DNA of 43,161 nucleotides, from contig JAYUDR010000022.1 in NCBI GenBank assembly GCA_043739665.1, positions 1 through 43,161 of the forward strand, written 5' to 3'. Position numbers and translations under genes: made by a program. Shown here one piece after another: positions 26,121-26,375 of this stretch. The notes under the pieces are model-generated. The model did no database searches and had not been told where the DNA came from. It saw nothing but the letters and a program-made list of their open reading frames with translations. This DNA is from Chloroflexota bacterium. GTDB lineage: Bacteria > Chloroflexota > Limnocylindria > Limnocylindrales > CSP1-4. The first letter of the stretch is position 1. Every line of letters starts with the position of its first letter.

Positions 26121-26177
26121 AGAAATAAAGAACCGCGGCTCCGTTGGCGAAAGCTTACTTTCGCTCGAGTCCGCGGC
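26121..26177 (-). terminator. Intrinsic terminator (attenuator) in the metY leader
   Basis: Minus strand GCCGCGG-ACTC-GA-GCGAAAG-TAAG-CTTTCGC-CAACG-GAG-CCGCGGT followed by TCTTTATTTCT; lies between promoter and metY start. Confidence 0.8.
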
Positions 26178-26225
26178 CCCGGGACTGATCTTTGGTCCGG
26201 CTACGCTGCTAGGTGAGCCAGAACC

Positions 26226-26336
26226 TCAGACCCCATCCTCCGCACTTCGGGGCCGCCAGGGCATACACAACATCGAACAGCGCAGGCACGAGGCCATGCG
26301 CGAGTTCTCCCGGCGGCTGAAGGCGTGGCTATTCAT
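26226..26336 (-). CDS. Met/Cys-rich leader peptide (36 aa, MNSHAFSRRENSRMASCLRCSMLCMPWRPRSAEDGV)
   Basis: Hand translation; 3 Met + 3 Cys within 12 codons; ATG 9 nt after a TAGACT -10; overlaps the antiterminator arm. Below the ORF-track cutoff. Confidence 0.75.
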   Translation of the reverse strand: MNSHAFSRRENSRMASCLRCSMLCMPWRPRSAEDGV

Positions 26337-26345
26337 TGCCCGCGC

Positions 26346-26375
26346 AGTCTAGGCGAGTAGCTGCGCATTGTGCAA
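26346..26375 (-). promoter_or_regulatory. Sigma70-type promoter for leader-metY-metX
   Basis: TTGCAC (26375-26370) - 18 nt - TAGACT (26351-26346). Confidence 0.6.

Follow-up and report, generated by a model that had tools for sequence, protein, structure and literature searches.

A probable methionine, and at family level also cysteine, leader-peptide attenuator of metY-metX in an uncultured lineage of Chloroflexota

What controls the methionine genes metY and metX of a Chloroflexota bacterium (assembly GCA_043739665.1) is a question raised by the DNA immediately ahead of them on contig JAYUDR010000022.1, of which positions 1 to 43,161 were analyzed (43,161 nucleotides (nt), hereafter the window). 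The usual RNA controls of metY and metX are S-adenosylmethionine (SAM) riboswitches and Met T-boxes; a sequence-only reading of the window had proposed a leader-peptide attenuator sensing both Met and Cys. By comparing this leader with those of its relatives we find that it is most likely a ribosome-mediated attenuator of metY-metX that responds to Met and, at the level of the family, also to Cys.

The promoter-like boxes, the 36-codon small open reading frame (sORF), the nine-nucleotide complementarity and the U-tailed hairpin that had been read from the single sequence were all found at the positions given for them (Table 1; all leader-locus positions are on the minus strand of the window). 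The sORF encodes MNSHAFSRRENSRMASCLRCSMLCMPWRPRSAEDGV. The core of the arm that we call S1, GCGGCCCCG (26256-26248), is perfectly complementary to CGGGGCCGC, the antiterminator 3' arm. The stem of the terminator pairs GGGGCCGCGG (26180-26171) with CCGCGGUUCU (26138-26129) and encloses an inner hairpin (26166-26147), and its U-rich tail runs to 26121. A further segment, S2, has alternative partners, pairing either with S1 (helix H3) or with a linker ahead of the terminator (helix H6), and a hairpin (H4) stands between S2 and the linker.

The leader is real and beyond chance, and it is conservation rather than fold energy that shows so. Of 36 other genomes of the same genus, 35 have the leader DNA; there the conserved block extends from 26376 to 26117, promoter through terminator, and another block close to the start of metY is conserved as well. 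None of 24 genomes from a second family of the order has the leader. A covariance model (R1) built from 30 genus sequences matches 63 of the 151 family genomes (37 of 81 high-quality ones), with matches in 27 of 49 genera, and seven family genomes carry two leader copies at separate loci. In a phylum-wide sample R1 matches 4 of 151 genomes, all in the class, with a split of 2/3 in its own family, 1/10 in a second family of the class and 0/137 elsewhere. As for fold energy, a value of -110 kcal/mol was computed for the 246-nt leader (z = -2.2), which is better than shuffled sequences to a modest degree, since 4 of 200 shuffles fold as well.

A scan for S1-type loci with a 17-base GC-rich pattern, using one genome per species, gave at least 120 loci. 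Among the 120 matches listed, R1 confirms 50 (E<=0.01), all of them in Chloroflexota-type metagenome-assembled genomes, many from Ca. Limnocylindrales; their labels read uncultured Chloroflexia, Ca. Limnocylindrales/Limnocylindria, Chloroflexi/Chloroflexota, one Thermomicrobiales and one Anaerolineaceae. The 70 matches that R1 does not confirm at this threshold include Streptomyces, Saccharopolyspora and Proteobacteria records, which were taken as chance matches. Five of the unconfirmed matches (L094, L147, L159, L168 and L179) are Chloroflexota-type records with leader-like peptides. Two of these, L168 (5515-5650; MACCCC) and L179 (MCC), continue into RRRPR…ED and stand before DUF4395 genes; R1 confirms neither (L168, 14.4 bits, E 0.48; L179, no match), and their leader-like sORFs may be diverged Cys-specific relatives. 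A diverged copy in the second family of the class (L192:1390-1750, 42 bits) encodes MHAINPTPMCMPWRPRREVEGA*, has GAGGUAGAA in place of GGAGGAU and carries an extended -10-like TGCTACGGT 6 nt before its ATG.

The layout of sORF, antiterminator and intrinsic terminator that the sequence-only reading had described is conserved and covaries across the whole family. S1 is invariant in all collected leaders; loci from the pattern scan were preselected for it, those found by the covariance model were not, yet they also carry it. Of 98 leaders, 94 keep the antiterminator pairing complete (9/9) and four lack a single pair (8/9); the only changes are those that keep G-U pairs or touch the end pair. The terminator stem covaries (position 10, GC 59 and AU 30; position 13, CG 47 and UA 39; position 14, CG 54 and UA 33) and has 5-10 U in the 12 nt beyond it in every leader that could be parsed (94; the other 7 of 101 could not). 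Pairs of H3 are retained in most of 97 leaders, with a subgroup of eight in another register, GGGCGCC. Both-side changes occur within the genus in 4 of the 9 pairs of H4. For H6 the observed mean of 6.12 out of 8 pairs compares with 5.72 (standard deviation 0.05) for shuffled partners, the observed value being reached by 0 of 200 shuffles, and compensatory sets include GCGCCGAG:CUCGGAGC, GGUCCUGG:CCAGGAUC and GGCCUG:CAGGCC. Covarying stems were thus found in the relatives for the terminator, H4 and H6. Two upstream helices, H1 and H2, are specific to the genus: the 5' arm of H1, GCCGCCGGG (26317-26309), can pair with CCCUGGCGGC (26261-26252), and H2, a hairpin at 26307-26275, has double changes in 3 of 13 pairs.

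Other helices were considered and not adopted. Long-range pairs proposed by RNAalifold on the genus alignment (GGAGAA with UUCUCC, and the H2 3' arm with the H3 loop) have no covariation and were set aside, and a helix H5 (GGACC:GGUCC) is, by eye, broken without compensation in several genus members. Outside the genus GGGACC:GGUCCC is possible and competes with H4 and H6.

The geometry of the sORF start is also regular. In 97 of 101 leaders an in-frame ATG or GTG follows a TTGNNN-N16-19-NANNNT motif at a distance of 6-10 nt, most often 9 nt (63 of the 97), the start codon being ATG in 69 and GTG in 28. In the window the -10 box (TAGACT) ends 9 nt ahead of the sORF ATG at 26336, and for this reason the mRNA would be leaderless or nearly so; the spacing of 6-10 nt in relatives fits a predicted leader of 0-4 nt. 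This leaves no space for a Shine-Dalgarno (SD) sequence, so translation would start on leaderless or near-leaderless mRNA. All 30 genus loci retain the sORF, with 36 amino acids in 28 and 43 in two, and among 96 distinct leaders it has 21-43 codons, with modes at 23 and 36. Its N-terminal part varies in length and sequence outside the genus, and an in-frame ATG or GTG is always there. The stop codon (TGA in 90, TAG in 6 of the 96) is retained despite sequence change, and where the usual stop is missing the frame continues for a few codons to another one. The two 43-residue sORFs owe their length to a 21-nt hairpin inserted in frame in the H2 loop; such an insert is also seen by eye in L036 and L072, where in L072 it is 18 nt as judged from peptide length.

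The codons that would act as sensors lie directly before S1. Of the 30 genus leaders, 30, 28 and 30 have Met at codons 22, 23 and 25, respectively, and 6, 4 and 1 have the Cys codons 17, 20 and 24 of the window; four have an internal ATG at codon 14. Two of the window's Cys codons (26288-26286 and 26279-26277) lie outside the control block. The genus pattern is M-M-x-M, and most other genera have M-C-M, a block found in 47 of the 96 distinct leaders, in which the middle residue may be replaced by S, A, Q, G, V, F, P, Y, E or R with the flanking Mets kept. The proposal of dual Met/Cys sensing is consequently only partly supported: Cys is conserved at the family level only, and at this locus and in this genus only Met codons are.

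Across the 96 leaders, Met makes up 39% and Cys 12% of the six codons before the motif xxRPR, compared with 1.9% and 2.8% in the more upstream part of the peptides. Because the leaders are related to one another, these counts are not independent, and what is informative is that the number, order and spacing of the block shift while its Met/Cys identity stays, codons of this kind being present in every case: the block comprises 2 to 9 codons between fixed flanks. Expanded blocks are found in L043 (SMRMAMGMQMMQM), L162 (MDMWMCLSMCMCRM), L076 (CAMCPCMGM), L175 (ACMCPCMEM) and L116 (CCCRMAM); one genus has eight Met, and a Cys-rich block stands before a sulfite-reductase-type gene. A CCC run is found in a single confirmed leader (L116), and CCCC is seen solely in L168, a match without support from R1.

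The block also appears to follow the gene that it precedes. A downstream family could be assigned for 64 confirmed leaders, and in 53 it is a metY-like Cys_Met_Meta_PP gene. Five leaders stand before beta-carbonic-anhydrase-like genes (L063, L071, L119, L187, and L070 in the unpublished genome G141) and three before OsmC-like genes (L062, L088 and L141); L066 precedes a NirA/Sir-type reductase gene followed by a CysG-like gene, L069 a CMD/peroxidase-related gene and L167 a thrC-like gene. The final Met, which as read from the listings is absent from none of the 53 metY-linked leaders, is missing from five (MCR, CLCT, MCT, CVCMC and MCRC), all before non-metY genes, namely three beta-carbonic-anhydrase-like, one NirA/Sir-type (beside the CysG-like gene) and one CMD/peroxidase-related. 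Since related leaders are not independent of each other, these numbers overstate the case. To judge from these sequences the leader looks like the cis-element of a small sulfur regulon, and its codon mix moves towards Cys at genes of the sulfur-assimilation type. The inclusion of the unassigned beta-carbonic-anhydrase-like and OsmC-like genes in this regulon suggests roles in sulfur metabolism for both.

Taken with the anatomy above, we consider it probable that the element attenuates transcription of sulfur amino-acid genes through a leader peptide and the ribosome that translates it, and we propose the following model. The promoter would drive a leaderless or near-leaderless transcript bearing the 36-codon sORF, with its Met codons (and, at family level, Cys codons) directly 5' of S1. 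When Met-tRNA or Cys-tRNA is scarce the ribosome would stall at the first control codon, covering the part of the sORF upstream of it, and S1 would stay free, favoring an ON state in which S1 pairs with CGGGGCCGC and so removes the 5' arm of the terminator, while H6, formed by the stop-codon region and the linker, encloses H4. When supply is good the ribosome would finish and leave, and an OFF state would fold in which H3 (S1:GGGGUC), aided by H1 in this genus, holds S1, H4 and the terminator form, and transcription halts about 155 nt before metY, leaving metY-metX untranscribed. For stalling to lead to readthrough in this way, release at the stop codon would have to be fast relative to transcription of the next ~75-110 nt. 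In relatives the same scaffold, with another mix of Met and Cys, stands before further sulfur-related genes.

The sequence-only reading had the ribosome itself switching the operon off, with fast translation occluding the antiterminator, a view that the geometry does not bear out. The sORF stop lies 20 nt 3' of S1, so that a terminating ribosome covers S2 and leaves S1 free, and that state favors the antiterminator in our fold model. It is therefore likelier that the off-state arises when S1 is sequestered locally by hairpin H3, and in this genus also by H1, than through occlusion by the ribosome. The fold model treated 96 leaders as nascent transcripts cut before the terminator 3' arm, at equilibrium and with a masked ribosome footprint. 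With no ribosome the antiterminator had a median probability of 0.42, with a bimodal distribution and values below 0.5 in 50 of 96 leaders; with the A site on the first control codon the median rose to 0.94-0.98, and 75-76 of 96 leaders exceeded 0.5. The model is thus compatible with a scheme in which stalling would give readthrough, and finishing and leaving would give H3 and termination. An equilibrium fold of one full-length leader with a masked ribosome was discarded as uninformative, the terminator dominating at all ribosome positions (0.59-0.93).

Several observations weigh against this mechanism. In 46 of 96 leaders the antiterminator is already favored without a ribosome, so that the fold model discriminates modestly, and with the ribosome at the last control codon the median antiterminator probability is 0.81 when 8 nt 3' of the A-site start are masked and falls to 0.01 when 11 nt are. 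A ribosome at the stop codon favors the antiterminator (0.83-0.86), which is the wrong sign if release is slow. Given an equilibrium model with such modest discrimination, the direction of the response is something that we infer. The genus-specific H1, to which the model gives a helping role, has both-side changes in 0 of 9 pairs and several unpaired cells, a weak support. Nor do coding statistics single out the sORF frame, and they were dropped as evidence for it: summed column entropies at codon positions 1, 2 and 3 are 15.1, 11.1 and 11.0, with no excess at the third position, and the +2 frame is likewise open in 91 of 96 leaders, which makes the openness of the sORF alone uninformative. 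With a flat codon-position entropy and an open +2 frame, the case for translation rests on the start geometry and the behavior of the control codons. Finally, a core of ~100 nt that is almost invariant across genera and stands before several different genes has traits typical of a riboswitch.

This last point leads to an explanation in which the sORF is incidental and the leader is a metabolite-binding riboswitch of an undescribed class, responding for example to SAM, methionine, homocysteine or a sulfur metabolite, its aptamer being either the OFF-state fold or the junction that the antiterminator stem, a small hairpin, H6 and H4 form in the ON state. The near-invariance of the core over 27 genera, a multi-helix junction with invariant loops, the placement before several gene families of one pathway, the lack of codon-position periodicity, and a terminator with a competing stem in the usual layout of an expression platform would all be expected of such an element. 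It leaves unexplained, however, the fixed spacing from promoter to start codon in 97 of 101 leaders, the in-frame Met/Cys block of 2 to 9 codons with fixed flanks, the retention of the stop codon when S2 changes, and hairpin inserts that keep the frame (21 nt in three leaders and 18 nt in L072). The Rfam models are also all without a match. Across the whole window there was none at the gathering score, as the earlier reading had expected for SAM riboswitches and T-boxes; at E<=10 the region 25850-26550 gave three chance-level matches far below thresholds (isrB, a small nucleolar RNA and an H19 fragment), and at E<=0.1 the loci of seven diverse relatives gave tRNA only. With no Rfam match the leader is not a described SAM, S-adenosylhomocysteine or T-box element. 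It shares with SAM riboswitches and Met T-boxes the genes regulated and the terminator/antiterminator output; it differs in having no Rfam match and in sensing apparently through codons and not through a ligand or tRNA pocket. We regard the riboswitch explanation as very improbable. The overlapping pairings, together with the reading frame, plausibly account for the near-invariance of the core under the attenuator model.

The end of the sORF invites a different objection. The peptide closes with (R/P)(W/G/R)RPR(R/S)xEDGV-stop, and this C-terminus together with GGAGGA could hold the terminating ribosome, its dwell time then helping to choose between H3 and the antiterminator, so that the leader would be a hybrid sensor combining codon stalling with a second input, whether a TnaC-like arrest or a junction ligand. 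In keeping with this, a ribosome placed by the fold model on the last 2-3 codons frees S1 and favors the antiterminator (0.83-0.86), GGAGGA is invariant wherever it can be judged, the stop codon lies within helix H6, and the C-terminal peptide is almost constant. The overlapping RNA pairings (H3, H6 and the antiterminator) suffice, however, for that conservation. The residue before E-D varies at codon positions 1-2 with position 3 fixed, a constraint that is RNA-like and not one on the peptide; the subgroup of eight and several other leaders run the frame beyond the usual stop; and such an input alone has the wrong sign for a biosynthetic operon. We consider a hybrid sensor distinctly unlikely.

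A broader version of the idea is speculative, and we would put it forward as unlikely though worth stating: the ~100-nt invariant core might be more than two passive hairpins, namely a modular sensing scaffold that reads a second signal, or a held terminating ribosome, alongside tRNA charging. It is to the same limited degree conceivable that this scaffold is an ON-state four-way junction, composed of the antiterminator stem, the small hairpin, H6 with the stop codon, and H4, to which an exchangeable Met/Cys 'codon cartridge' is fitted. If true, one scaffold device would be reused over a sulfur regulon of metY, sulfite-reductase-type, beta-carbonic-anhydrase-like, OsmC-like and thrC-like genes.

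The invariant GGAGGA within the sORF resembles an SD sequence; it lies 8 nt before the sORF stop, with a start-site-like spacing from the last sense codon, and none of the explanations adopted here accounts for it. The tail that follows the terminator, UUUCUCCGG (26125-26117), is complementary to it by eye.

The same tail is complementary, again by eye, to the metY SD region CAGGAGAA (25973-25980). This complementarity bears on the possibility that control is translational or Rho-dependent, a stalled ribosome preventing the masking of the metY ribosome-binding site, as at the polycysteine sORFs of mycobacteria, with the CUCC-containing tail and conserved downstream boxes as the sequestering partners. 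Two more conserved blocks do lie between the hairpin and metY, the first of them a second near-complement of S1 in alignments, whose GACGG...CCGCC motif recurs in 64 of 94 leaders, and control of this kind has been demonstrated by Canestrari et al. (bioRxiv 10.1101/834739). What this explanation does not fit is a hairpin with the shape of an intrinsic terminator, whose GC-rich stem covaries and is trailed by a U-rich tail in every one of the 94 parsed leaders, and the conservation of its 9-bp competitor. As the sole mode of control it has, in our view, little chance of being right; as a supplement to attenuation, the two blocks may provide a second, translational layer.

Leader-peptide attenuators are textbook devices in Proteobacteria (trpL, hisL, thrL, leuL, pheL and ilvL). 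The present leader resembles these classical attenuators in its short reading frame with codons for the end product and in its mutually exclusive antiterminator and terminator ahead of a biosynthetic operon. It is unlike them in that Met and Cys would be the amino acids sensed, the sORF is predicted to be leaderless or nearly so and lacks an SD sequence, the control codons abut the antiterminator arm itself and not a separate 'region 1', the stop lies 20 nt past the arm, one scaffold serves several operons, and the host belongs to Chloroflexota. Beyond Proteobacteria, the literature describes trp and ilvB leader attenuators in Actinobacteria (Seliverstov et al. 2005, PMC1262725) and leader-peptide attenuators in Firmicutes (PMC2965389). 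For Actinobacteria the former also reports leaders with Cys codons, and no terminators, ahead of cys or cbs operons, and methionine operons without conserved RNA structure upstream (PMC1262725).

Three further described systems are close to it. In Campylobacter jejuni a MetL leader peptide precedes metBA (cj1727c-cj1726c), with attenuation proposed (Porcelli et al. 2013, PMC3847290), and a later study reports its translation initiation by profiling of initiation sites (bioRxiv 10.1101/2022.11.09.515450). Like our leader, MetL is a Met-codon leader on a short RNA before a sulfhydrylase and homoserine acyltransferase pair; compared by its description, it differs in having 20 amino acids, three Met codons and a ribosome-binding site, and the available description mentions neither Cys codons nor a scaffold shared across operons (PMC3847290). 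In Streptomyces lividans TK24 a leaderless 'metL' has been predicted before metNIQ (Droste et al. 2021, PMC8079986). This sORF is similar in being leaderless, as ours is predicted to be or nearly so, in its C-terminal mix of Cys and Met (…ARCMCRRMCAF*) and in standing before a methionine-related operon; it differs in preceding a transporter and not metY, in that no typical Rho-independent terminator was found, and in being a single-genome prediction without comparative support (PMC8079986). The earlier view that no Met and Cys peptide attenuator had been described is accordingly too strong, since both the C. jejuni MetL (PMC3847290) and the C-M-C-R-R-M-C leader of S. lividans (PMC8079986) precede the present one.

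In mycobacteria, polycysteine leaderless sORFs act translationally in a 'Cys ribulon' (Canestrari et al., bioRxiv 10.1101/834739). They resemble our leader in being sensory sORFs before several sulfur or cysteine loci, leaderless there and predicted to be so or nearly so here, and in a regulon-wide action through ribosome pausing, which in our case is proposed. They differ in that a duplex hides the downstream SD sequence and transcription is not terminated, whereas a terminator is present here, and in having consecutive Cys codons and no RNA scaffold conserved across loci (10.1101/834739). The Cys codons of the window, by comparison, are three, scattered and non-conserved, and the family consensus is M-C-M and not a polycysteine run.

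A literature search on leader-peptide attenuation of metY, with most subscription journals beyond its reach, found the present element undescribed, and one on leader-peptide transcription attenuation in Chloroflexota, with the same reach, found no description. What is new here is the phylum, the mixed and tunable Met/Cys control codons, the multi-helix scaffold that recurs across operons and the unusual geometry. If the model is right, leader-peptide attenuation would extend to Chloroflexota, and the leader would be the best comparative case so far for sensing through Met and Cys codons. The ~100 natural variants of one scaffold, from Met-only to Cys-rich blocks matched to the downstream gene, would amount to a natural mutagenesis series, useful for asking how codon identity and position set the specificity of an attenuator. 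In this uncultured lineage of soils and wetlands, the leader also points to genes that probably form a sulfur regulon.

The genes around the leader are arranged, on the same strand, as a cystathionine beta-synthase (CBS) gene (TIGR01137, 516 bits, above cut-off), a cystathionine gamma-synthase/lyase (CGS/CGL)-family gene, the leader, metY and metX. CBS and the CGS/CGL-family gene together span 26435-29216, and ~470 nt separate the latter from metY. The metY start is a GTG at 25965 that is kept in relatives by alignment, with an SD sequence GGAGA at 25978-25974. The match to the MetX model begins at residue 101-113 of the longest metX reading frame, with ~100 residues preceding it, and the real start may be internal to that frame. 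CBS, the CGS/CGL-family gene and metY together suggest a capacity to convert homocysteine to cysteine (reverse transsulfuration). The genome, which is 82.5% complete, has a cysK-like gene, and neither cysE nor a sulfite reductase (NIR_SIR) was found in it above threshold at that completeness. Given this combination, with CBS and the CGL-like gene upstream of the leader, the organism may make its cysteine from MetY-derived homocysteine, for which the context is suggestive but weak.

Table 1. Positions of the leader features and neighboring genes in the window.
Feature	Position	Strand	Details
Promoter-like boxes	26346..26375	-	TTGCAC 26375-26370, 18-nt spacer, TAGACT 26351-26346
Leader sORF	26226..26336	-	36 codons + TGA (26228-26226)
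H1 + H2, genus-specific upstream helices	26275..26317	-	both in the minimum-free-energy fold
Control block ATG-TTG-TGT-ATG (M22 L23 C24 M25)	26262..26273	-	directly 5' of antiterminator arm; from codon table
S1 GGCGGCCCCG	26248..26257	-	antiterminator 5' arm and H3 5' arm
SD-like GGAGGA, S2 and stop	26226..26241	-	GGAGGA 26241-26236; S2 GGGGUC 26234-26229; TGA 26228-26226
H4 hairpin	26194..26225	-	GGUUCUGGCU (26225-26216) with AGCCGGACC (26202-26194)
Linker AGAUCAGUCC, H6 3' strand	26182..26191	-	pairs GGAU (26238-26235) and GGUCU (26232-26228)
Antiterminator 3' arm CGGGGCCGC + intrinsic terminator	26121..26181	-	arm 26181-26173, overlaps terminator
Post-terminator box ACGUCGGGCAGCCGCC	26074..26089	-	conserved
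Second conserved block CCCCAGGGCUCCCCGGGAUCAA	26016-26038	-	between terminator and metY (alignments)
metY (O-acetylhomoserine sulfhydrylase)	24616..25965	-	TIGR01326, 687.7 bits vs cut-off 495.1
metX (homoserine O-acetyltransferase)	23293..24600	-	TIGR01392, E 1.4e-84, 284 bits, under 500-bit cut-off
CGS/CGL-family gene	27637-26435	-	directly upstream of leader
Alpha-L-arabinofuranosidase-like gene	21612-23144	-	after metX; NF051901, E 1.6e-74, below cut-off

Contigs of relatives cover ~26167-26344 in RNA libraries (4 of 24 metatranscriptome runs compared), and in the 24 contig sets small shares of the sampled words match (0.04-0.08). These contigs carry neither ends, strand nor level, and their cover follows sequence conservation; they were set aside as evidence on transcription start or termination, and at least one of them extends upstream beyond the -10 box. 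A consensus scan of 25900-26500 that required 9/12 hexamer matches and a terminator loop of 3-8 nt returned no promoter-like and no terminator-like site, its rules being narrower than these hexamers and the hairpin here having an inner stem-loop. In the loop of the terminator (26147-26166, minus strand) the window and several relatives share a hairpin module, GAGCGAAAG-loop-GCUUUCGC, and in L009, L030, L036 and L072 a similar module occupies the loop of H2 without breaking the sORF frame; it looks like a recurrent stem-extending insertion. The arabinofuranosidase-like gene that follows metX is unrelated to the leader.

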